From Stanieria sp. NIES-3757 (lineage in GTDB: Bacteria; Cyanobacteriota; Cyanobacteriia; Cyanobacteriales; Xenococcaceae), in the NCBI GenBank assembly GCA_002355455.1, contig AP017375.1:3811640-3835639 (forward strand): a stretch of DNA of 24,000 nt. Direction: 5' to 3'. Positions within the stretch are counted from its first letter, which is position 1. The number at the start of each line of letters is the position of its first letter. Positions 4,112 to 23,584 of the stretch are shown here, one piece after another. A program made the translations under genes and the position numbers. A model generated the notes under the pieces. It saw only the letters and a program-made list of their open reading frames with translations. It had not been told where the DNA came from and did no database searches.

Positions 4112-4681
4112 ATGAATTTACCCAATCAAACTATATCTAAACTGACATTGGCAGAATTCTTGGAACTTGCAGAAACTAAGCCAGAACAAGAATACTTAGC
4201 AGGAGAAATATTACAGAAGCCGATGCCACAAGGAGAACATAGTGTTTTGCAAGCTAGTTTAGTTACAGAGATTAATCAAATAGGTAAATCACAAAAATTA
4301 GTCTGTGCTTTTCCTGAGTTACGTTGTACTTTTGCAGGCAGTTCTATTGTGCCTGATGTGGCAGTATTTGAATGGCAAAACATTCCGCTACAAGTTAATG
4401 GCAAGATTAGCAATAAGTTTGAAATTGCACCAGATTGGATCATTGAAATACTATCTCCTGAACAATCAGCTAATCAAGTGATTAGAAAAATTACTTTTTG
4501 TTTGAGCCAAGGAACAAAACTAGGATGGTTGATCGATTCTAAAGATGAATCGGTGGTAATTTTTGAACCTAATTCTACTCCTATAGTTAAAGCTAATCAC
4601 GATATTTTGTTAGTTTTAGAAGTTCTACAAAACTGGCAACTCTCAGCAGCAGATTTATTTAGTTGGCTAAATTTTAGGTAA
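4112..4681 (+). CDS. Uma2 family (DUF820) PD-(D/E)xK putative endonuclease
   Basis: The protein shows the typical Uma2 layout: LTLAEFLEL...EYLAGEI...MPQGEHS near the N-terminus, then PDVAVF and APDWIIEILSPEQS nuclease-core motifs. Confidence 0.85.
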   Translation: MNLPNQTISKLTLAEFLELAETKPEQEYLAGEILQKPMPQGEHSVLQASLVTEINQIGKSQKLVCAFPELRCTFAGSSIVPDVAVFEWQNIPLQVNGKISNKFEIAPDWIIEILSPEQSANQVIRKITFCLSQGTKLGWLIDSKDESVVIFEPNSTPIVKANHDILLVLEVLQNWQLSAADLFSWLNFR

Positions 4682-5044: not shown

Positions 5045-5219
5045 GATAGCCTAGCCCCTGAAAGTAAATTAGTTAGTTGATTTGATTTTTAATTTACGAA
5101 GCGATCGGGAAAAAGTAGAGATAATCTAAAATCCTCAATGATAAATTTTGCCTTGTAACTGGTTAACATTTAAAAAACACTGGTAACATAAACGATCTAG
5201 ACCTTTGCTGCTGTTTGTC

Positions 5220-7535
5220 ATGACTGTCAATACGGACTTTTTTAGCCATCTCAATCCTTCTCAACGTCGCGCTGTTGAACATTTTTGTGGCCCTATGTTA
5301 GTGGTTGCTGGTGCTGGATCTGGTAAAACTAGGGCATTAACTTATCGAATTGCTAACCTGATTCGCAACCATAAAGTTGAACCAGAACATATTTTAGCGG
5401 TGACTTTTACTAATAAAGCTGCGCGAGAAATGAAGGAAAGAATTGAATATCTGTTTGTGCAAGAATTGGCACAGGATAAATATGGACAAAGGTTAGAGTT
5501 TTTAAACGAATACGACCAAAAAAAACTGAAGTCGCAAGTTTATAAAAAGATTACTAAACCTCTTTGGATTGGAACTTTTCATAGTTTATTTGCTCGTTTA
5601 CTTCGTTTCGATATTAATAAATATCAGGATGAAAGAGGTCGTACTTGGAAGCGAAACTTTTCTATTTTTGACGAGTCAGATGTTCAAAGTTTAATTAAAA
5701 ATATTGTTACTAAGCAGTTAAATCTAGACGATAAAAAGTTTAATCATCGTACAGTAAGATATGCGATTAGTAATGCTAAAAACCAAGGGTTAACACCTGA
5801 AACTTATGCTAGGGAAAATGGCGGTTATAAAGGTAGAGTAATTGCTGAAGTTTATAACGAATATCAAGCACAACTAGCAGCTAATAATGCTTTAGATTTT
5901 GATGATTTAATTTTAGTTCCAGTTAGATTGTTTCAACAAAATGAATCCATTTTGGGTTATTGGCACACTCAGTTTCATCATATTTTGGTAGATGAATATC
6001 AGGATACTAACCGCACTCAATACGATCTAATTCGTTTACTTGCTACTAATGGCGAAACAAAAAAACAGGAATGGGATTGGCGAGGTAGATCATTATTTGT
6101 GGTGGGAGATGCGGATCAATCTATTTATTCTTTTCGGTTAGCAGACTTTACAATCTTGCTCGATTTTCAACAAGATTTTGGGGATGGTTTACCCGATGAT
6201 GATACTCGTACAATGATTAAATTGGAAGAAAATTATCGTTCTCGGGAAAATATTTTACAAGCTGCTAATGCTTTAATTGAAAACAATAGCCAACGGATTG
6301 ATAAAGTTTTAAAAGCAACTAGAGGAATCGGAGAACAAATTTATATTTATAAAGCGGATGATGAACAACACGAAGCTAAGTTTGTTATTAATCAACTTAA
6401 ACGAATGGTAACAGAAAACCCTGAATTAACTTGGGGTAGTTTTTCAATTTTATATCGAACTAATGCTCAGTCTCGTCCCTTTGAGGATTTATTATTACAA
6501 AATAGTATTCCTTACAATATTGTCGGTGGTTTGAAATTCTACGATCGCAAAGAAGTTAAAGATGCGATCGCGTATCTTCGGATGATTGTTAATCCTAATG
6601 ATACGGTTAGTTTACTGAGAATTATTAATACTCCCAGACGTGGAATTGGTAAAACTAGTATTGAATCTCTTAATAATGCAGCACAACAATTAGGTGTTCC
6701 TCTTTGGGAAATTCTTAGTGATGAAACTTCGGTTAATACAATGGCAGGCAGATCGGCAAAATCAGTTAATAAATTTGCCCAAATGATTTTACATCTACAA
6801 CAACAACAAGAAAACTTAACTGCTGCTGAAACTTTGAACTATGTTATGGAAGCATCTGGTTATGTTGATGATTTAAAAAAACAAGGTACAGATGAAGCGG
6901 ATAATCGCATTGCTAACGTTGTTGAATTATATAATGCGATCGTTCAATTTCAAGAAGATAATGAAGAAAATAAACTGCAAGATTTCCTTGCTAATGCTTC
7001 CCTTGCTTCCGATCTAGATAATCTTGAAGAAGGGCAAGAAAAAGTCTCATTAATGACACTTCATTCTGCCAAAGGTTTGGAATTTCCTGTCGTTTTTCTA
7101 GTCGGAATGGAACAAGGTTTATTCCCTCACAATCGTACTTTAAACGATCCTTTAGAATTAGAAGAAGAACGTCGTCTTTGTTATGTAGGCATCACTCGCG
7201 CCCAAGAACAACTATTTTTAACTCATGCTAGAGAACGTCGTCTTTGGGGGGAAAGAGAACTTGCTGTTGCCTCACAATTTTTAAAAGAACTTCCTCAAGA
7301 TTTAGTTAGTAGTAATATTAAATCTCATTACCGTGCTAAAACTGCAAATACTACAATTCAAACTAATAATTATACTTGGAATATAGGCGATCGCGTTTGG
7401 CATCGAGAGTTTGGTGAAGGAGAAATTACCCACATTTTAGGTTCAGGAAAAAAAGCCACTCTAGCAATTAAATTTCCTAGTTTAGGTACAACAAAAATTA
7501 TCCCTCAACTAACTCCAATGGAAAAAATAAATTAA
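5220..7535 (+). CDS. pcrA: ATP-dependent DNA helicase PcrA/UvrD (superfamily 1A)
   Basis: Motifs seen are LNPSQRRAVEH, Walker A AGAGSGKT, Walker B VDEYQDTN, VVGDADQSIYSFR, TLHSAKGLEF and LCYVGITRA, plus a C-terminal GDRVWHREFGEGEI domain. The ATG at 5220 is preferred over the track's TTG at 5205. Confidence 0.92.
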   Translation: MTVNTDFFSHLNPSQRRAVEHFCGPMLVVAGAGSGKTRALTYRIANLIRNHKVEPEHILAVTFTNKAAREMKERIEYLFVQELAQDKYGQRLEFLNEYDQKKLKSQVYKKITKPLWIGTFHSLFARLLRFDINKYQDERGRTWKRNFSIFDESDVQSLIKNIVTKQLNLDDKKFNHRTVRYAISNAKNQGLTPETYARENGGYKGRVIAEVYNEYQAQLAANNALDFDDLILVPVRLFQQNESILGYWHTQFHHILVDEYQDTNRTQYDLIRLLATNGETKKQEWDWRGRSLFVVGDADQSIYSFRLADFTILLDFQQDFGDGLPDDDTRTMIKLEENYRSRENILQAANALIENNSQRIDKVLKATRGIGEQIYIYKADDEQHEAKFVINQLKRMVTENPELTWGSFSILYRTNAQSRPFEDLLLQNSIPYNIVGGLKFYDRKEVKDAIAYLRMIVNPNDTVSLLRIINTPRRGIGKTSIESLNNAAQQLGVPLWEILSDETSVNTMAGRSAKSVNKFAQMILHLQQQQENLTAAETLNYVMEASGYVDDLKKQGTDEADNRIANVVELYNAIVQFQEDNEENKLQDFLANASLASDLDNLEEGQEKVSLMTLHSAKGLEFPVVFLVGMEQGLFPHNRTLNDPLELEEERRLCYVGITRAQEQLFLTHARERRLWGERELAVASQFLKELPQDLVSSNIKSHYRAKTANTTIQTNNYTWNIGDRVWHREFGEGEITHILGSGKKATLAIKFPSLGTTKIIPQLTPMEKIN

Positions 7536-10089: not shown

Positions 10090-10974
10090 ATGAATAAACA
10101 AAACAAGCTCTCCTCATGGTTAGATCGCGATAGTTTTGCTGCCTGGATTTTTCTAGCACCTGCACTAATCATTTTAGGAATATTCCTGTTTTATCCAATT
10201 CTGTATCTGTTATATCTCAGTTTTACAAGTGGTAGTTTTACTGTAGAGGGAATTAAATGGATTGGTTTAAGTAATTATTTTCGACTGTTTACGGATGCTG
10301 ATTTTTGGCAAGTCATTGGTAATACGGTTTATTTTACGGTCGCTACCGTTATTCCTACTTTAGTAATTCCATTGATTTTAGCTGTTTTACTCAATCGTTC
10401 CATTCCGTTACGGGGAATTTTACGTACTGCCTATTTTGTCCCTTCAATTACTTCTTTAGTGGCAGTTGGATTAGGATTTCGCTGGCTATTTCAAACTGAA
10501 GGGCCAATTAATCAATGGCTACTGCAACTCAATATTAACCCAATTCCTTGGTTAAGTAGTACGATTTGGGCAATGCCAGTTTTAATTTTACTTAGTAGTT
10601 GGAAGCAACTAGGATTTAATTTGATTGTCTTTTTAGCTGGTTTACAGACTATTCCTCAATCTCGTTACGAAGCAGCAGAATTAGATGGTGCTAATGGCTG
10701 GGCAAAATTTTGGTACATTACTTTACCAGGATTACAACCGACAATTATTTTTGCTACTGTTACTACAGCAATTTTTACTCTACGTAGTTTTGAACAAGTT
10801 TATATTATTACTGGTGGTGGCCCTTTAAATTCAACTAATTTATTAGTTTATTATATTTACGAACAAGCTTTTGCTCGGTTTGAGTTTGGTTATGCAGCAG
10901 CAGCAGCAACTATTTTGCTTGCGATCGCTTTTATGTTTGTTTATATTTATCTGCGTACTTGGAAAGAAGATTAA
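10090..10974 (+). CDS. ABC transporter permease, carbohydrate-uptake type (MalF/UgpA-like)
   Basis: The protein has six predicted TM segments and the EAA loop YEAAELDGANGWAKFWYITLPGL. No partner permease, ATPase or binding protein is adjacent. Confidence 0.85.
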   Translation: MNKQNKLSSWLDRDSFAAWIFLAPALIILGIFLFYPILYLLYLSFTSGSFTVEGIKWIGLSNYFRLFTDADFWQVIGNTVYFTVATVIPTLVIPLILAVLLNRSIPLRGILRTAYFVPSITSLVAVGLGFRWLFQTEGPINQWLLQLNINPIPWLSSTIWAMPVLILLSSWKQLGFNLIVFLAGLQTIPQSRYEAAELDGANGWAKFWYITLPGLQPTIIFATVTTAIFTLRSFEQVYIITGGGPLNSTNLLVYYIYEQAFARFEFGYAAAAATILLAIAFMFVYIYLRTWKED

Positions 10975-11456
10975 TTGTCTTGATAACCAGTTTTTATAAT
11001 TAAATTAAAGTATTTTTGCCATTAAATTCAATTTTTTAGACTAAATATAATTTTTTTTATTATTAATAGTTAATTAAAGAGGCTGATTGGTGTCAAATTT
11101 CAGTTTTTGATTCGCAAATTTCTTGGTTAAATTTCCAACAGCGATCTGCTCCGCAGGCGCATACGCGATCGCTTTAGGAGAAGATTTTCTATTTTCTTTA
11201 CTTTTGACTAATATGATATTTTTGGCAGACCGCCCAGTATACACCTAAATGAATCTACTTGTTGTTAATCAAAAAAATATCTAGATAAATTTACAGAAAT
11301 AATTCTTCGTATTATACTTCTTCACAAGCCGTCAATCAGTAGTGGTTTTAATTTATATAAACTTCATAAAATTCAAGTTTATGTAAACTATATTTACTCA
11401 CAATATAAATATTAGGACAGCAAAAGCTATTGCAGCCGTCAAACATAATTCTCAAT

Positions 11457-12881
11457 ATGAAAAACTTAAAACTAAAAAATTTGCTTAAACCTCGTTTGCG
11501 AAATTCCAAACGTCAAGAATTAGAAGTTAGTTTACCATTTGTATTTTTCTTTTCTGCAATTTGGACTTTAGCAATTTATGGGGTTTTAATACCTTTTAGA
11601 ACAACTCCTCTCGGTATTTTTATGTATGAGAGGGGATTTACTCAATACGTAGTTATCGCTTTATCTGGGATGGTGCTTGCTATCACTGTATTAAAGTATT
11701 TCAAGCTAAAGTCTGAAAGTCATGCGTTAAGAAAAATTTGGATTGCCGAACATATTCCCCTAGAAAAACCAAATTCGCCAGATGTTGCTTATTTTCGCGA
11801 CAGATTAGCCAAAGATGGAAGTTTAGTTGCAATTCGTTGTAGTCGTGTTTTAGATGCTTATATCCACTCAGGCGATCGCGCTGCTGCCACAGAATTTGCT
11901 TTAGATGACTCTTCCTTTTATTTAAGTACTTCAGAATCATCTTATTCTTTTCCTCGCATCTTAATTTGGGCGATTCCTCTCTTAGGATTTTTAGGTACAG
12001 TATTAGGAATTAGTCAAGCAGTAGGAGGTTTTTCTGGAGTTTTAGAACAAGCTGAAGATGTTGAAAAAATTAAAGAAGGAATTACTTCTGTTACTACTGG
12101 TTTAGCAGTGGCGTTTGATACTACTTTACTTGCTTTATGTTTTAGTATTTTATTAATGATTCCCTTAGTTTTAGTCGAGCGTTATGAAACTCGATTACTC
12201 CTAGGAATAGATATTTTTATTAATGATAAATTACTGCCTAGATTAAAAAATAAAAATAAAGATGTTAATGTCGAAACTATTAATCAAGCAGTTAAAGGAG
12301 CAATTGACGAATATTTTCCCAATCCAGAAGCTTTAATTGAACCAGCACAAATTTATGCCGAAAAAGCTGCTCATGTTTTAGCACAAGGATTTATCGAACA
12401 GATTAGCAAAGTACAAGATGTTAGCTCTGAGATCATTCAACAAGTAGGAGAAGTTCGTTCGTTAGCTAGCAGTGATCGCCAAGAATTTATGAATTTCTTT
12501 CATCAACAGCAACAAGCTAACCAAGAATTAATTGCAGGTATAAAAGCAACAATTGAAGAAATAAAAACAAACCAAGAATCAATTGCGATCGGTTTAAATG
12601 GTCAAGCTACAGAAATAAGCCAAACTTTAGAAAAAGCTGCTCAAGCTTTAGAAAATCGCGTTGCTAATTTAGAACAAGCTGCTAATAAAATTCCCCAACT
12701 AAATCAGTTTCAGCAAAGTTTAGATCATAATCTGCAATCAATGGAAAAAACTGCCCAATTGGAAGAAGTTTTAATAGGTGTCAAAGAAAACCTTGCTCAA
12801 CTACAACTAATTCTCAAGCAGATGACTCAACCTCGTAAAATTACATTAATTGAACATCAAAATGGCAATATCCCTTTCTAA
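11457..12881 (+). CDS. MotA/TolQ/ExbB-family proton-channel protein with a long C-terminal coiled-coil tail
   Basis: There are four TM segments. The last two carry the family signature PLLGFLGTVLGISQAVGGF ... TTGLAVAFDTTLLALCFSILLMIPL. They are followed by about 230 residues that are rich in Q, E, A and L and poor in proline. The ATG at 11457 is preferred over the track's TTG at 11430. Confidence 0.8.
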   Translation: MKNLKLKNLLKPRLRNSKRQELEVSLPFVFFFSAIWTLAIYGVLIPFRTTPLGIFMYERGFTQYVVIALSGMVLAITVLKYFKLKSESHALRKIWIAEHIPLEKPNSPDVAYFRDRLAKDGSLVAIRCSRVLDAYIHSGDRAAATEFALDDSSFYLSTSESSYSFPRILIWAIPLLGFLGTVLGISQAVGGFSGVLEQAEDVEKIKEGITSVTTGLAVAFDTTLLALCFSILLMIPLVLVERYETRLLLGIDIFINDKLLPRLKNKNKDVNVETINQAVKGAIDEYFPNPEALIEPAQIYAEKAAHVLAQGFIEQISKVQDVSSEIIQQVGEVRSLASSDRQEFMNFFHQQQQANQELIAGIKATIEEIKTNQESIAIGLNGQATEISQTLEKAAQALENRVANLEQAANKIPQLNQFQQSLDHNLQSMEKTAQLEEVLIGVKENLAQLQLILKQMTQPRKITLIEHQNGNIPF

Positions 12882-12902
12882 AATAAAAGAGGAAATGCAA
12901 CA

Positions 12903-13394
12903 ATGAGGGGCAGAAAAACCCGAAAAATAGCAGAAGCAGAGCTAAGTTTAGACTCATTTTTGGATATCATCGCAAATATAATTGGAGTCTTAATTTTTAT
13001 TACTCTATTTGTCGCAACTCAGGCAATGAATCAAAAAGAAGTAACCATTCTGGCTAAATCAGAACAGGGAGAAAATCGGAGTAAAAATCCTCGTTATATT
13101 GAATGTCGGGAAGATGGTGTAGTACTTTATCCTAGTAAAGAATTTGTTCCTCAAGCGCAACTACAAAATCCTAATTCGGCATTACAAAAATTAATTAGCC
13201 AAATCCAAAATAACAAAGACAAAGAGTATTTAATTGTTGCTTTAAGACCAAGTGGAATTGATGTTTTTAATCAAGTTCGCAATGTAGTTCAAGGCAAAGG
13301 AATTGATATTGGTTATGAACCACTGGATTCTGGTTGGAACTTAAACGTTCAAGGTGAAGTAGTTAATGAGAAGAAGAAAACGTCGCAAAATTAA
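12903..13394 (+). CDS. ExbD/TolR-like single-TM protein (paralogue 1)
   Basis: A basic N-terminus is followed by SLDSFLDIIANIIGVLIFITLF, which places an Asp at the start of the TM segment as in ExbD (PFIDVMLVLLIIF). The C-terminal YLIVALRPSGIDVFNQVRNVVQGKGIDIGYEP resembles the ExbD periplasmic domain. A GAGGA sequence precedes the ATG. Confidence 0.55.
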   Translation: MRGRKTRKIAEAELSLDSFLDIIANIIGVLIFITLFVATQAMNQKEVTILAKSEQGENRSKNPRYIECREDGVVLYPSKEFVPQAQLQNPNSALQKLISQIQNNKDKEYLIVALRPSGIDVFNQVRNVVQGKGIDIGYEPLDSGWNLNVQGEVVNEKKKTSQN

Positions 13395-14061
13395 TCATCC
13401 TGGTCAAAATTTTGACTCATTTCTCGATACTATGACAAACACCATTGGTGTTTTAATGTTTATTACTCTTTTTACAACTTTGATTGCTGAAAAAAGCACT
13501 TCTGTAGTTCGGACTCCCCTCGCTTCAAAAATTGAAAAAACACCTCGTTTTTTTGAAATTAGAGATAATAAAGTTACCTATATAAATGATACGAAAGTAG
13601 GAGCAGAGATAGAAGAATTAATTGGTAATCTTCCTGCCTGTAATCAACCAGAAGGAATGTCGGGATTGGGGTTAGCGGAAAATCAAGCTTATTTTGATTA
13701 TCGCTCTTGTATTCAAAGTCGGGCTAACCGTTTGATTAACTTTCAAACTCAAACCGATTTTTATAATGTCAAAATGGTAAATGCAAGTACATTCTCTCTA
13801 CTTTACGAACCACTTCCTACTAAAGAAGGAGAATCTAAACCACAATTGCAGCAGCCTAATTCGAGTTTTCAGACCACTTTAGCTAAATTAAATCCTAATA
13901 AAGATTATCTCGCTTTTATTGTTCGACCTGATAGTTTTGCAACTTTCAGAGCAGCTAGAGAACAAGCCTGGAAACAAGGATTTAATGTTGGTTGGGAACC
14001 TCATAAAGAAGATGCACCGATTATCTTTGGTTCAGGGGGAAGAGCCATTGACGCACAATAA
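13366..14061 (+). CDS. ExbD/TolR-like single-TM protein (paralogue 2, larger periplasmic part)
   Basis: MRRRKRRK...FDSFLDTMTNTIGVLMFITLF aligns residue for residue with the upstream ORF. The C-terminal YLAFIVRPDSFATFRAAREQAWKQGFNVGWEP is also shared. The ORF overlaps the upstream ORF by 29 nt. Confidence 0.55.
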   Translation: MRRRKRRKINHPGQNFDSFLDTMTNTIGVLMFITLFTTLIAEKSTSVVRTPLASKIEKTPRFFEIRDNKVTYINDTKVGAEIEELIGNLPACNQPEGMSGLGLAENQAYFDYRSCIQSRANRLINFQTQTDFYNVKMVNASTFSLLYEPLPTKEGESKPQLQQPNSSFQTTLAKLNPNKDYLAFIVRPDSFATFRAAREQAWKQGFNVGWEPHKEDAPIIFGSGGRAIDAQ

Positions 14062-14084
14062 ACATTTATTTATGCTCATTTAAA

Positions 14085-14324
14085 ATGAAAATTTTTACTA
14101 ATTTTTTGAGTTCTTTAATCATGGCTGGATGGATAGCCGCGATCGCAGTTTTTTCGATTCAGAATATTCAGCAAGTATCTTTGAAATTTTTAACTTTTCA
14201 ATCAATTCAATTACCAATTGGGGTTTTATTGTCATTTTGCTTGGGAATTGGTTTTCTGTTGGGTTCTTTATTGCCTTTATTGTGGCAAAGATCTAGAAGA
14301 GCTAGTCAGGATGTTTATTATTAA
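14085..14324 (+). CDS. Small two-TM membrane protein, LapA-domain (DUF1049)-like
   Basis: The 79-aa protein has two hydrophobic helices (LIMAGWIAAIAVFSI and IGVLLSFCLGIGFLLGSLLPLLW) and a basic tail (QRSRRAS). It starts 23 nt after the preceding ORF. Confidence 0.6.
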   Translation: MKIFTNFLSSLIMAGWIAAIAVFSIQNIQQVSLKFLTFQSIQLPIGVLLSFCLGIGFLLGSLLPLLWQRSRRASQDVYY

Positions 14325-16376: not shown

Positions 16377-16411
16377 AGGATAACTGATAACTGAATAGAG
16401 GAGGATTGCTT

Positions 16412-17848
16412 TTGCAACTAGACGCATACGATCCAGAAGAATTTTATGATGAATTATTTGTCGCTCAAGGAAAACCGCGATCGCAAGCGGAATCTCTGAT
16501 CAAATTAATCCAAAAACTAGGAATTAAACAATTAGAACAACATCGGCAAACAGCCGAGATCGCTCTGTTTAAATTAGGAGTAACTTTTAACGTCTATAGT
16601 GATAATCAAGGCGTAGAAAGAATTTTTCCTTTTGATATTATTCCTCGCATTATCTCAGCCCAAGAATGGCAATGGCTAGAAAAAGGCTTAAAACAGAGAA
16701 TTAAAGCTCTTAATCTCTTTCTCGATGACATTTACAACGAGCAACTAATCCTCAAAGACGGTAAAATTCCTGCGGAAGTAATTCATACCGCTACTGGTTT
16801 TCTGAAACCTTGTCTTGGGATAAAACCACCTCAAGGAATTTGGTGTCATATTACTGGTACAGATTTAGTACGCGATCGCGATGGTAAATGGTATGTACTA
16901 GAAGATAATCTGCGAGTACCTTCAGGAGTTTCTTACGTCTTGGAAAATCGGCGAGTGATGAAAAGCACTTTTCCCGATATCTTCCACACCATGGCTGTTA
17001 AAGCGATCGATGATTATCCCAGTCATTTACTAGAAACTTTATTAAATTTAGCACCACCTCATTTACCCGAACCTACTGTAGTTGTTCTCACTCCTGGTAT
17101 CTACAATTCTGCCTATTACGAACATTCTTTTCTAGCACAACAAATGGGAGTAGAGTTAGTCGAAGGTAGAGACTTAGCCGTCGTCGATGGCTATTTACAG
17201 ATGCGAACTACTAAAGGATTGCGTCGAGTCGATGTCGTTTATCGTAGAGTAGATGATGGCTTTTTAGATCCTAAGGCTTTTCGTCCCGATTCCCGTTTAG
17301 GTGTTCCAGGATTAATGGAAGTATATCAGCAAGGAAAAGTAGCCTTAGCCAATGCACCAGGAACAGGAGTAGCAGACGATAAAGTAGTTTATGCTTATGT
17401 GCCTGAAATGATTCGCTACTATTTGGGCGAAGAACCCCTTTTATGTAATGTTCCCACCTATCTGTGTTGGCAAGAACAAGACCGAGAATACGTCCTCAAA
17501 AATCTAGATAAATTAGTAGTCAAAGCAGCCAACGAAGCTGGAGGTTACGGAATGTTAGTCGGGATTAAAGCTACACCAGCAGAAAGAGAAGAATTCGCTC
17601 AAAAAATTCTTGCCCAACCTCGTAATTATATTGCTCAACCAACCCTCAGTTTGTCGCGAGTACCTACTTTAATTGATGGTGAAATCGAAGGAAGACACGT
17701 AGATTTGCGTCCTTATATCCTCCATCGTGGTGATGAAGTTTATGTTCATCCAGGCGGACTTACCCGCGTTGCACTCAAAAAAGGCTCATTGGTAGTTAAT
17801 TCTTCTCAAGGAGGAGGAAGTAAGGATACTTGGGTTTTAACAGAATAA
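16412..17848 (+). CDS. Circularly permuted type-2 ATP-grasp protein (DUF404/DUF407 class)
   Basis: The sequence (M)[15 protein letters not shown]...[34 protein letters not shown]...[19 protein letters not shown] is characteristic of this family. The TTG at 16412 sits about 6-7 nt after the AGAGGAGGA Shine-Dalgarno, whereas the track's TTG at 16406 abuts it. Confidence 0.85.
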
Positions 17849-17911
17849 AGCCAAGCAAACAGGGAAAGTATTGACAACAAAAACTTATAACCAATGACTA
17901 ACAAATAACGA

Positions 17912-18859
17912 ATGTTAAGTAGAGTAGCTGATTCAATTTACTGGTTAAACCGCTATATCGAGCGAGCCGAAAATGTTGCTCGTTTTGTCGATGTCAATCT
18001 CAATCTGATGTTAGATTTGCCTCCAGGAATGACCCAGCAATGGCAACCTCTGGTTTCAATTACAGGAGATGTAGAACTGTTTAAAGCACGTTATGGTGAA
18101 GCAAATGCCAAAAATGTGATTCAATTCCTAACTTTTGAAGAAGATTACCACAATTCGATTATTTCTTGCTTACAACGTGCTAGAGAAAATGCCCGTTCTA
18201 TTCGAGAAATCATTTCGTCAGAGATGTGGGAAGAAGTCAACTCTTTTTATTTAATGGTGAAAGAAGCCTCACCAGGAAAACCTTTTGATGCCCTGCCCTA
18301 TTTTTTTTATCAGGTAAAAATGGCTAGTCACCGTTTTGCTGGAGTCATGGATGCGACGATGACTCATAATGAGGGATGGCATTTTGGGCAGATGGGTAGA
18401 CTTTTAGAAAGAGCAGACAAAACTACTCGCATTCTCGATGTCAAATATTTTGTTTTATTACCTTCAGCGGAATGGGTAGGTACACCTTTAGATCAAATTC
18501 AATGGATCTCTCTACTTAAGTCTGCTAGTGCTTATGAGATGTATCGTAAATGCCAGCATCGCATTACTCCTACTTGTGTGGCTGAATTTTTAATTTTAAA
18601 TCGTCAGTTTCCTCGTTCGATTCACTTCTGTCTTTGGCAAGCTGAACAATGTCTGCATGAAATTACCAACACTCCTACAGGAACTTGGTGTAATGGTGCA
18701 GAAAGATCTCTTGGCAAATTATGCTCTCAATTAGGTTATTTAACTATAGAGGATGTAATTCAGACTGGTTTACATGAATTTCTCGATCAAATGCAAAGTT
18801 CGATTAATCAGGTAGGAAACGAAATTTATACAACTTTTTTTGCAGTGGATAATTGTTAG
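17912..18859 (+). CDS. Alpha-E domain protein (DUF403)
   Basis: MLSRVADSIYWLNRYIERAENVARFVDVN is the canonical alpha-E N-terminus. The protein is all-helical in character and is the usual downstream partner of the permuted ATP-grasp gene. Confidence 0.85.
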   Translation: MLSRVADSIYWLNRYIERAENVARFVDVNLNLMLDLPPGMTQQWQPLVSITGDVELFKARYGEANAKNVIQFLTFEEDYHNSIISCLQRARENARSIREIISSEMWEEVNSFYLMVKEASPGKPFDALPYFFYQVKMASHRFAGVMDATMTHNEGWHFGQMGRLLERADKTTRILDVKYFVLLPSAEWVGTPLDQIQWISLLKSASAYEMYRKCQHRITPTCVAEFLILNRQFPRSIHFCLWQAEQCLHEITNTPTGTWCNGAERSLGKLCSQLGYLTIEDVIQTGLHEFLDQMQSSINQVGNEIYTTFFAVDNC

Positions 18860-22942: not shown

Positions 22943-23584
22943 TTATTGCGAATTTTGCCATTTTACACTGACAAAATGGGCTGGACGACCCAACTGGTCA
23001 GTGGTTTGAATAATTTCCTTAATTTTTAAATTAAACGGAATTGCTGTAGTCAAATACTTTTGTACTGACATACCAATTTCAGGGGCAATCCAGGCAGCAG
23101 TAGTAGTTGCAATTCCTAATCCAATTAGTTGTCCAATCGGTTCTCTGGGTAGCAATAAATAAGTGCTAAAAATCATGCCTGTGGTGATTAACATTGATAC
23201 TGAAACATTAGTACCACAGCGCGGATGAAGAGCTAAATCCCATTCACCTTTGAGTAATCGATTCAAAGCTATCTCAACCGCCCTTTTTAGATTCAAAGGA
23301 TGAATATCGCCGTAAAGATAAAAACCCTTTTCGGTTGATAGTCCGCCAATTTTTTCATTATCTCCCAAGACGTTATTGCCTGAAGCAGAAAAATTTTGTT
23401 CAAAATCGCTTAATACCCACACAGTAGCGTGTTCAAGAGCGTGTACTTGACGGATTAACAAAAATTCTTTTAAACCAGGAATAAAACCCAACTGTTGCAA
23501 TAATTCACTATCCTGCCCCGGATGAGGAGTAAAAAAATCAAAATTCCAAAAATTGCCATTCTCGGCAGAAGCTGCATTAGTCAT
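22943..23584 (-). CDS. Conserved-looking hypothetical membrane protein with HxxEH and HPRCGTN motifs
   Basis: The 213-aa protein carries VHALEH (nt 23429-23443), LHPRCGTN and two hydrophobic segments (VSVSMLITTGMIFSTYLLL and LIGLGIATTTAAWIAP). Confidence 0.6.
   Translation of the reverse strand: MTNAASAENGNFWNFDFFTPHPGQDSELLQQLGFIPGLKEFLLIRQVHALEHATVWVLSDFEQNFSASGNNVLGDNEKIGGLSTEKGFYLYGDIHPLNLKRAVEIALNRLLKGEWDLALHPRCGTNVSVSMLITTGMIFSTYLLLPREPIGQLIGLGIATTTAAWIAPEIGMSVQKYLTTAIPFNLKIKEIIQTTDQLGRPAHFVSVKWQNSQ

Follow-up and report, generated by a model that had tools for sequence, protein, structure and literature searches.

This study concerns a three-gene membrane module of the cyanobacterium Stanieria sp. 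NIES-3757, encoded within a 24,000-nt stretch of its DNA (the window; all window coordinates refer to the full stretch). An initial annotation had placed here a self-contained MotA/ExbB-type motor operon with a tailed channel subunit and two ExbD/TolR-like paralogues, followed by a small LapA-like membrane protein. The three genes are referred to as A, B1 and B2; they and their neighbour are open reading frames (ORFs) on the + strand with the following features:

11430-12881, + strand: gene A, tailed MotA/ExbB-family channel subunit, 483 amino acids (aa) from the listed TTG
11955-12179, + strand: third transmembrane (TM) helix, periplasmic loop and fourth TM helix of A (TM3, loop and TM4; residues 176-250), the MotA_ExbB core, with invariant T190, D230, T231 and T232
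12180-12878, + strand: cytoplasmic helical tail of A (residues 251-483), with heptad-like hydrophobic periodicity and few Pro/Gly
12831-12854, + strand: tail-tip motif of A, PRKITLIE (residues 468-475); P468, R469 and E475 nearly invariant
12903-13394, + strand: gene B1, single-pass protein with a modelled TolR/ExbD-fold periplasmic domain, 163 aa
12948-13028, + strand: TM helix of B1 (residues 16-42), B2-like in the Stanieria clade (LDSFLDIIANIIGVLIF); Asp17 at 12951-12953, Asp21 at 12963-12965
13366-14061, + strand: gene B2, 231-aa paralogue of B1, likewise single-pass and with a larger periplasmic domain
13411-13494, + strand: TM helix of B2 (residues 16-43); Asp17 at 13414-13416 and Asp21 at 13426-13428, invariant
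13588-13815, + strand: insertion in B2 relative to B1 (residues ~75-150) with the cysteines C92 and C115, seen as a gap in the hhalign alignment
14085-14324, + strand: small LapA-domain membrane protein, 79 aa, a lineage-specific neighbour outside the core

The tight spacing described earlier was borne out by the ORF coordinates: a 21-nt gap separates A from B1, the start of B2 overlaps the end of B1 by 29 nt, and a 23-nt gap precedes the LapA-like gene. Translation of A may in fact begin at the ATG at 11457, giving 474 aa, since orthologue alignments begin there. Upstream of A lies a 455-nt AT-rich intergenic region with one promoter-like site (11290-11318); inspection of this region for promoters and terminators gave counts below the shuffled expectation. 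Identity is 100% between B1 and STA3757_34780 of Stanieria sp. NIES-3757 and 89% between A and Sta7437_2383 of Stanieria cyanosphaera PCC 7437, which places the window in a pleurocapsalean cyanobacterium. Both B proteins are labelled hypothetical in the database records seen; JGI calls several B1 orthologues ExbD.

Protein A carries the MotA/TolQ/ExbB channel signature attributed to it, with WAIPLLGFLGTVLG, TTGLAVAFDTT and MIPL all present. The four TM segments proposed for it correspond to hydrophobic stretches at residues 31-49, 70-88, 177-195 and 231-249 behind a basic N-terminus. It passes the Pfam gathering score for MotA_ExbB (PF01618) with 30.9 bits against 22.9 (E 2.6e-7, residues 166-244), and most A orthologues have a precomputed PF01618 match. 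Conservation over 68 orthologues was highest in TM3 (0.91), the loop (0.80) and TM4 (0.92). T190 (in LGT), T231 and T232 were invariant across 18 and 16 diverse A sequences; judged from motif position, T190 and T231-232 would be equivalent to ExbB T148 and T181. Further invariant residues include D230, E250, E253, R68-G69-Q72 and R136/R139. In the DTT of the last TM helix (residues 230-232, window 12117-12125) an invariant Asp directly precedes the two invariant Thr residues; the MotA/TolQ/ExbB family does not usually have an Asp beside its pore Thr pair. Asp230 would place five extra carboxylates near the presumed ion path, and may be related to the usual absence of an Asp from B1, described below.

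The long tail noted on A was confirmed as a helical region of ~230 aa after the TM segments. In Pfam and the PDB it matched only coiled-coil entries, as did a full-length A profile against the PDB. Among the same 68 orthologues the middle of the tail was least conserved (0.47) and its proximal part was conserved. Total length of A among relatives ranged from 389 to 1023 aa (389 aa in Crocosphaera, 584-1023 aa in others). At the C-terminus stands the consensus L-x-P-x-L-x-x-L-x-(K/Q)-P-R-x-I-x-L-V-E, recognizable by eye in all but ~4 of the 68 orthologues and in 49 of them by a strict pattern match. This tip motif is also present in the most distant lineages, whatever the tail length.

The sole relevant NCBIfam match of A was antiphage_ZorA_2 (residues 75-440 aligned to profile positions 7-374 of 383, E 7e-8), at 31.9 bits against a cut-off of 100; it ranked above any ExbB or TolQ model there. 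PADLOC ZorA models gave 16-28 bits. The best PDB match of the A core was 8vvn, a 696-aa pentameric MotA/TolQ/ExbB-domain protein, at a non-significant E of 0.21, and a family profile of the core had no match in the PDB. The Pfam pass, the sub-cut-off ZorA scores and the weak PDB matches together indicate that A is a genuine MotA/ExbB family member that is not close to any characterized subfamily.

In both B1 and B2 a single TM segment lies near the N-terminus, behind a few basic residues. Their proposed ExbD relationship was not recovered in Pfam: B1 reached 14.4 bits against the 25.4 needed for ExbD (PF02472), with 15/66 orthologues matching (best E 5.9e-4), and B2 matched no family, ExbD being hit by 0/66 of its orthologues. 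PDB sequence-profile searches with B1 and B2 gave nothing significant, ExbD 6tyi reaching E 1.4. No OmpA/MotB domain was found in either by Pfam, so that membership of the flagellar MotAB type is not indicated, and neither matched PADLOC at E<=1. The relationship did emerge at the level of fold, for which AlphaFold2 (AF2) models of both proteins were used. The B1 model, built on a 66-sequence alignment (pLDDT 76), has a TM helix and a β-β-α-β-α-β-β domain that is not OmpA-like. Its three top Foldseek matches in the PDB were TolR of E. coli (5by4; probability 1.0, E 5e-3) and two entries for the periplasmic domain of ExbD (8p9r_A and 8vgd_B; TM-score 0.68-0.70, rmsd 3.0).

That B1 and B2 are a paralogue pair was upheld by hhalign of the two families (probability 98.9%, E 2.1e-17). 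The alignment spans the N-terminus, the TM helix and the C-terminal β-α-β unit, leaving the ~75-residue B2 insertion unaligned. Because the B1 model matches TolR/ExbD and hhalign joins the families, we regard B1 and B2 as divergent ExbD/TolR-fold paralogues, the predicted fold of B2 resting on its paralogy to B1. The B2 cysteines C92 and C115 were invariant in 66 sequences, and the insertion occurs without these Cys in high-GC lineages. The C-terminal tail of B2, FGSGGR-x-IGVQ, is invariant.

A conserved Asp had been claimed for the TM segments of both ExbD-like proteins. The codons assigned to it were correct, 12963-12965 and 13426-13428 encoding Asp21 of B1 and B2, respectively, and in the window both proteins carry Asp17 and Asp21 in the motif LDSFLD/FDSFLD. 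Conservation, however, holds for B2 and fails for B1. Asp17 and Asp21 of B2 were found in 79/79 orthologues within the almost invariant helix motif QNLDSFLDILTNTVGVLMF, and the Asp motif recurs in 70%-GC lineages and in one distant system. Position 21 of B1 was Ser in 70/74 orthologues and Asp in 3/74, the usual helix being (V/I)ELFPFLSILACTIGTLILLIIV. A B2-like helix in B1 is limited to the window and its closest relatives (P0242, P0244 and P0246; loci L001 and L010). In the window, the TM-coding segments of B1 and B2 share 53/69 nt and 15/23 aa, against medians of 37/69 and 8/23 in 72 other loci. This similarity suggests partial gene conversion, and the Asp17/Asp21 helix of Stanieria-clade B1 probably arose in this way, from B2 into B1. 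The occurrence of two Asp-bearing subunits is a local, clade-specific peculiarity; the ancestral state is one Asp-type and one Ser-type helix. At loci whose proteins are only ~45-50% identical to those of the window, both B helices are near-invariant, much more so than the remainder of the proteins, yet mutually different, which fits two fixed, non-equivalent positions in one ring. A B1 helix of intermediate type (QDLESFLDILTCTIG) was seen at a Xenococcus locus (L012).

Co-conservation of the genes was assessed by a locus scan with the B2 alignment, using one genome per species. This gave 115 confirmed loci, of which the best 80 were fetched and their gene order determined by tblastn and ORF clustering. 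The order A→B1→B2 on one strand was found at 68 of the 80, and this recurrence in other genomes makes the gene order more than chance. The 12 exceptions comprised four contig ends or fragmented A genes, two B1-B2 pairs lacking A, and six orphan B2-like genes. The orphans (L045, L050, L058, L067, L069 and L073) have no adjacent A or B1 and a different C-terminus (…IRTILGSELPGG…).

The small protein named as the last member of the unit does belong to the LapA family (Pfam LapA_dom, 36.8 bits against 28) but is no conserved part of the module. It was present at 24/80 loci, all Pleurocapsales-like, which rules it out as a fourth subunit. The LapA gene is sometimes separated from B2 by another gene, and Uma2 genes are inserted there in several Pleurocapsales loci. 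At three Pleurocapsales loci (L058, L069 and L073) a LapA-domain gene follows an orphan B2-like gene, directly or with one gene between. Such orphans may point to a B2-LapA association independent of the motor. No other gene cluster occurred in more than 18 of the 80 loci, and no fourth gene recurs.

The trio is conserved in many cyanobacteria and in some other bacteria. The module was found in at least 115 species genomes, the B2-motif scan count of ~115 being a lower bound, and its distribution looks patchy. A universal cyanobacterial housekeeping operon was ruled out by this number of genomes, by the cluster counts in protein searches (182 for B2, 92 for B1) and by plasmid- or island-borne copies. 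HMMER searches with A against 1.84 billion cluster representatives gave 2,858 matches at E<=1e-3, 1,400 at <=1e-10 and 128 at <=1e-30. Contigs of ~70% GC (L081-L085 and L092) carry divergent A-B1-B2 modules with A proteins of 488-506 aa at 31-35% identity, a Ser-type B1, an Asp-type B2 without the Cys insertion, and 4-nt gene overlaps. In two of these ~70%-GC lineages the module adjoins an E. coli-type yceD-rpmF-plsX-fabH-fabD-fabG-acpP cluster. A related tailed A together with both B types is also encoded on contigs of 55-71% GC that look non-cyanobacterial. Distant tailed A proteins (27-31% identity) lie beside both helix types, for example NYDSLLDTMANVVG and SLFPFLSVLAG, and have weak ZorA matches in PADLOC. 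Given the HMMER breadth, the high-GC modules and the distant systems with both helix types, the module is part of a large branch of the superfamily that is essentially undescribed. Tailed MotA-like proteins of 500-770 aa were also seen beside CHAT/FGE-sulfatase, Ser/Thr kinase or ankyrin genes (L086/L087, L090 and L091), with companions carrying DS-x-LD or FPFLS helices. These distant loci suggest a wide, uncharacterized family of such motors.

As annotated initially, the operon encodes no TonB/TolA/OmpA-type partner; none was found anywhere in the 24-kb window, nor was a TonB-dependent receptor. A census of 122 immediate neighbours from 68 loci extended this picture, with no TonB, TolA, OmpA/MotB or TonB-dependent receptor family among the leading Pfam families. 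Neither the window nor these neighbours include an iron-transport gene or a TolB, Pal or CpoB-like gene, and flagellar genes and Glt-like neighbours were likewise not seen in the window or at neighbouring loci. To call the unit self-contained on these grounds was nevertheless an overstatement: an operon lacking TonB is no proof, as tonB is usually unlinked to its motor (PMC12204202). The leading Pfam families in the census were histidine kinases (13, mostly in Crocosphaera/Cyanothece), Uma2 (6), ABC-class ATPases (5) and M16 peptidases (4). Most neighbours are ordinary genes for histidine kinases, peptidases, oxidoreductases and pigment or cofactor enzymes.

Defence or CRISPR settings of some copies had not been foreseen in the initial annotation of the context. 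Two plasmid records carry the module, both among defence genes. On pANACY.03 of Anabaena cylindrica PCC 7122 (L089, 1-8541), cas10-cmr3-cmr4-cmr6 and a gene for a 510-aa CARF-HEPN protein lie directly upstream on the same strand; a deoxynucleoside kinase and a viperin are encoded downstream of the module here and at L024. The same type III-B Cmr block, again on the strand of the module and directly ahead of it, occurs in another four Nostocales genomes (L029, L042, L046 and L059). The gene directly upstream of A in the Nostocales Cmr loci matches PADLOC CARF-HEPN/Csx1 models (E 2e-250). A functional link of the module to type III CRISPR is possible on the basis of this gene arrangement. On p1 of Microcystis aeruginosa NIES-2481 (L088, 1-12315) the module lies in what appears to be a defence island, amid genes for an N6-methylase, a nucleotidyltransferase with SLATT, a helicase, DUF559, NUDIX, HNH and GIY-YIG proteins and an integrase. 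Other PADLOC matches among immediate neighbours were PD-T4-6, mad and MkoA. The module was not found in phage records or IMG/VR contigs.

Within the window, the gene preceding the 455-nt gap encodes a lone ABC permease (BPD_transp_1, 10090-10974, + strand) without an adjacent ATPase or binding-protein gene. Further upstream, at 4-10 kb, lie genes for a DDE transposase (1075-2430, - strand), a putative Uma2 endonuclease (4112-4681, + strand) and a UvrD/PcrA-type helicase (5205-7535, + strand). Downstream are a conserved two-gene set of a circularly permuted ATP-grasp and Alpha-E domain pair (16406-18859, + strand) and a DUF6391 protein gene (22943-23584, - strand). The rest of the window holds purN, this permease, an NmrA-like protein, a methyltransferase and similar genes.

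MotA/ExbB-type families form 5:2 proton-driven rotary stators that act through an output module such as TonB, TolA, the flagellar rotor, Agl or the ZorA tail. To our knowledge, each established 5:2 type (MotAB, ExbBD, TolQR, GldLM and ZorAB) has a homodimeric axle and a defined output. Several features of the module are those of ExbB-ExbD and TolQ-TolR. A has the PF01618 core with its PLLG-x-x-GTV motif and a TT in the last TM helix; B1 crosses the membrane once, its basic N-terminus and TM helix being followed by a predicted TolR/ExbD-fold periplasmic domain; B2 keeps the TM Asp; and the genes are adjacent and probably co-translated, as in Ton and Tol motors. A departs from ExbB and TolQ in its four predicted TM segments and in its ~230-aa coiled-coil tail, the tip of which is conserved. 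Unlike the ExbD or TolR homodimer, there are two different B subunits, of which B1 normally lacks the Asp. B1 also falls below the Pfam ExbD threshold and B2 has no match, and no TonB, TolA or Pal is linked.

In its long cytoplasmic helical tail of variable length, A, a MotA/ExbB-family subunit, resembles ZorA, whose models it matches weakly along its whole length, and some module copies lie in defence islands. ZorAB, itself a 5:2 motor, depends on the ZorA tail for its function in Zorya defence (bioRxiv 10.1101/2023.12.18.572097). The B subunits, in contrast to the MotB-like, homodimeric ZorB with its peptidoglycan-binding domain, appear ExbD/TolR-folded and come in two forms. At the 80 loci no effector of the ZorC, D, E, F or G type is linked, and neighbours are mostly housekeeping genes. 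A bona fide Zorya system was ruled out by the sub-cut-off ZorA scores, the lack of a ZorB-like subunit and the lack of linked effectors.

The gene pattern also recalls AglR-AglQ-AglS of Myxococcus, which combines one TolQ/ExbB-like gene with two different TolR/ExbD-like genes. The A + B + B' architecture is similar in gene pattern, but Glt or Agl partner genes are not found beside the module. AglR is not known to have a long tail, and AglQ and AglS probably both carry the Asp, whereas B1 normally has Ser. AglRS has been placed among non-flagellar 'GIT' homologues (PMC12505986). In another, non-canonical type of TolQ-like motor, proposed recently, TolR/ExbD would be replaced as the dimeric partner by single-pass vWA 'trans-pore helix' proteins that have a conserved Asp and form mostly heterologous pairs (PMC12204202). 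The partners here differ in their predicted TolR/ExbD fold, and A is tailed, whereas no cytoplasmic tail on the A-type subunit is described for those motors (PMC12204202).

It is quite likely, in our judgement, that A, B1 and B2 form an ion-driven complex of the MotA/ExbB-ExbD type that represents a new subfamily. Five copies of A would form a ring in which TM3 and TM4, with the invariant Thr residues and Asp230, face inward. This ring would enclose an axle made of one B1 and one B2 TM helix. B2 would contribute the canonical proton-carrying Asp21, together with Asp17, and B1 normally a Ser, so that the axle would be naturally asymmetric. In the Stanieria clade, where B1 appears to have acquired a B2-type helix, an Asp would be present on both axle helices. 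We favour an A5:B1:B2 stoichiometry because the two B genes are obligately paired and translationally coupled and each helix is near-invariant in its own right, and regard the case for such a heterodimeric axle as evenly balanced. The TolR/ExbD-like domains of B1 and B2 would anchor the axle to the envelope, with peptidoglycan, as for TolR, the probable site of attachment. The flow of protons would then turn or switch the A ring, which carries its ~230-residue coiled-coil tail in the cytoplasm. The tail tip (PR-x-I-x-L-V-E) would be the likely contact to a putative cytoplasmic partner. An output borne on the tail would make the unit more like ZorAB than ExbBD-TonB. That the tail with its conserved tip is the main output, and the TolR-like domains a periplasmic anchor as in ZorAB, is a more tentative proposal. 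The reading as a whole, a 5:2 motor whose B1/B2 axle is asymmetric and whose output is the cytoplasmic tail, falls a little short of evenly balanced. A bolder version, in which the module stands for a separate branch of 5:2 motors (tailed ring, Asp/Ser axle, and a variable tail with conserved tip as output) that extends beyond cyanobacteria and was perhaps recruited beside type III-B CRISPR-Cas in some Nostocales, seems rather doubtful.

Several observations weigh against the tail-driven asymmetric motor. The AF2 model of B2 (pLDDT 73) had no structural neighbour in the PDB by Foldseek, and B1 and B2 could each homodimerize in separate A rings. All ZorA matches were far below cut-off and may be inflated by coiled-coil composition; A has four predicted TM segments, unlike ZorA with three TM helices (bioRxiv 10.1101/2023.12.18.572097). 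No candidate cytoplasmic partner recurs beside the module among the 80 loci and 122 neighbours. Since the ExbD/TolR fold couples to TonB or TolA in known systems and tonB is usually unlinked, a periplasmic output is possible. Finally, sll0477-sll0478-sll0479 of Synechocystis sp. PCC 6803, an ExbB-like gene with two hypothetical genes, shows the same gene pattern. It forms one transcription unit, TU3083 (PMC4195498; PMC8634477), and is induced 6.7-fold by iron starvation (PMC4195498). Its genes have been named exbB/exbD3/exbD4, and strain 6803 is reported to have a Fur box there (PMC8634477); the operon is listed with the ExbB-ExbD clusters that iron uptake is said to require (PMC4195498, PMC8634477, PMC7133116).

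These last points lead to the main rival, a Ton-type role through an unlinked TonB. The module would be a third, divergent ExbB-ExbD set and a candidate counterpart of sll0477-0479, powering outer-membrane uptake, for example of iron, via a TonB encoded elsewhere, with the tail as an accessory. The predicted ExbD/TolR fold of B1 agrees with it, and its leading structural matches include solved ExbD periplasmic domains bound to TonB or D-box peptides; so do the JGI annotation of several B1 orthologues, the iron response and Fur box of the Synechocystis operon, a review according to which iron uptake needs three ExbB-ExbD complexes (PMC7133116), the usual separation of tonB from its motor, and the housekeeping genes around most loci. 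Against this, the Synechocystis locus was not among the best 80 of the 115 loci found with the invariant B2 motif, and no iron-related neighbour recurs beside the module, whereas the Synechocystis operon is under iron and Fur control; TonB, receptor and iron-transport genes are missing from the window and the 122 neighbours. The four TM segments and the 230-aa tail with its conserved tip are foreign to ExbB/TolQ, A scores higher on ZorA than on any NCBIfam ExbB/TolQ model, B1 usually lacks the essential Asp, and the distribution is patchy (at least 115 species genomes; 182 B2 and 92 B1 clusters). Taken together we consider this role unlikely. A second published ExbB was also compared: an Anabaena exbB2 (alr4587) mutant is unable to grow diazotrophically (PMC8262864). 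The published primers found no match at <=4 mismatches in Nostocales A genes, so alr4587 was rejected as an A orthologue and is probably a different ExbB, a weak inference.

Next after the Ton-type role comes a defence function, in which the module would act as a Zorya-like envelope sensor or a type III CRISPR-Cas accessory, through tail signalling or collapse of the membrane potential. The ZorA-like architecture of A, the defence genes around both plasmid copies (pANACY.03 and NIES-2481 p1), the Cmr/Csx1 block before the module in four further Nostocales genomes, the PD-T4-6, mad and MkoA matches among immediate neighbours and the patchy distribution are all compatible with it. Yet most of the 122 neighbours are ordinary genes, the defence settings being raw observations, and the five Nostocales cases are closely related and may reflect one event. 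The 70%-GC lineage holds a stable place by the yceD-rpmF-plsX-fab cluster. Moreover, the conserved unit has no effector gene (nuclease, helicase or NTPase), B1 and B2 have no PADLOC matches, A is far below the ZorA cut-offs, and phage records and IMG/VR contigs yielded no copy of the module; a defence function is improbable on balance. Least probable, and very unlikely in our view, is a Tol-like envelope maintenance or structural role, with the motor pulling on or organizing the wall and outer membrane via the B2 domain, possibly with the LapA-like protein in Pleurocapsales. In its favour, TolR 5by4 is the best structural match of B1, B2 has its ~75-aa conserved insertion with two invariant Cys and its invariant FGSGGR-x-IGVQ C-terminus, and in Pleurocapsales LapA-domain genes come after B2 and also after B2-like orphans. 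This purely inferential idea leaves the conserved cytoplasmic tail unexplained, and is opposed by the absence of linked TolA, TolB, Pal or CpoB-like genes, the loss of the Cys insertion in deep lineages and the restriction of the LapA linkage to 24/80 loci.

The structural interpretation given initially was largely right but needs amending as to the conserved Asp, the status of the LapA gene and the significance attached to the missing TonB. Only a few machines, the 5:2 ion-driven motors, deliver membrane energy to other sites in the cell in this way, and the module is a conserved, unannotated and mechanistically odd, previously undescribed variant of them. It joins an ExbD/TolR-type axle domain to a Zorya-type tailed ring, with two non-equivalent putative axle subunits and no linked output protein, and in most species only one of the two axle subunits has a proton-binding Asp. 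Were the module an ordinary TonB-dependent energizer, its value would be modest and mainly annotational, and it may be the already-studied 'third ExbBD' of cyanobacteria; its nature would also show whether the cyanobacterial 'third ExbB-ExbD' of iron-uptake studies really is a Ton motor. If the assembly favoured here, with its tailed ring and B1/B2 axle, is true, it becomes testable whether the motor runs on one Asp and what the conserved tail tip contacts. The Stanieria clade, with Asp on both helices, would then provide a natural comparison of symmetric and asymmetric axles.

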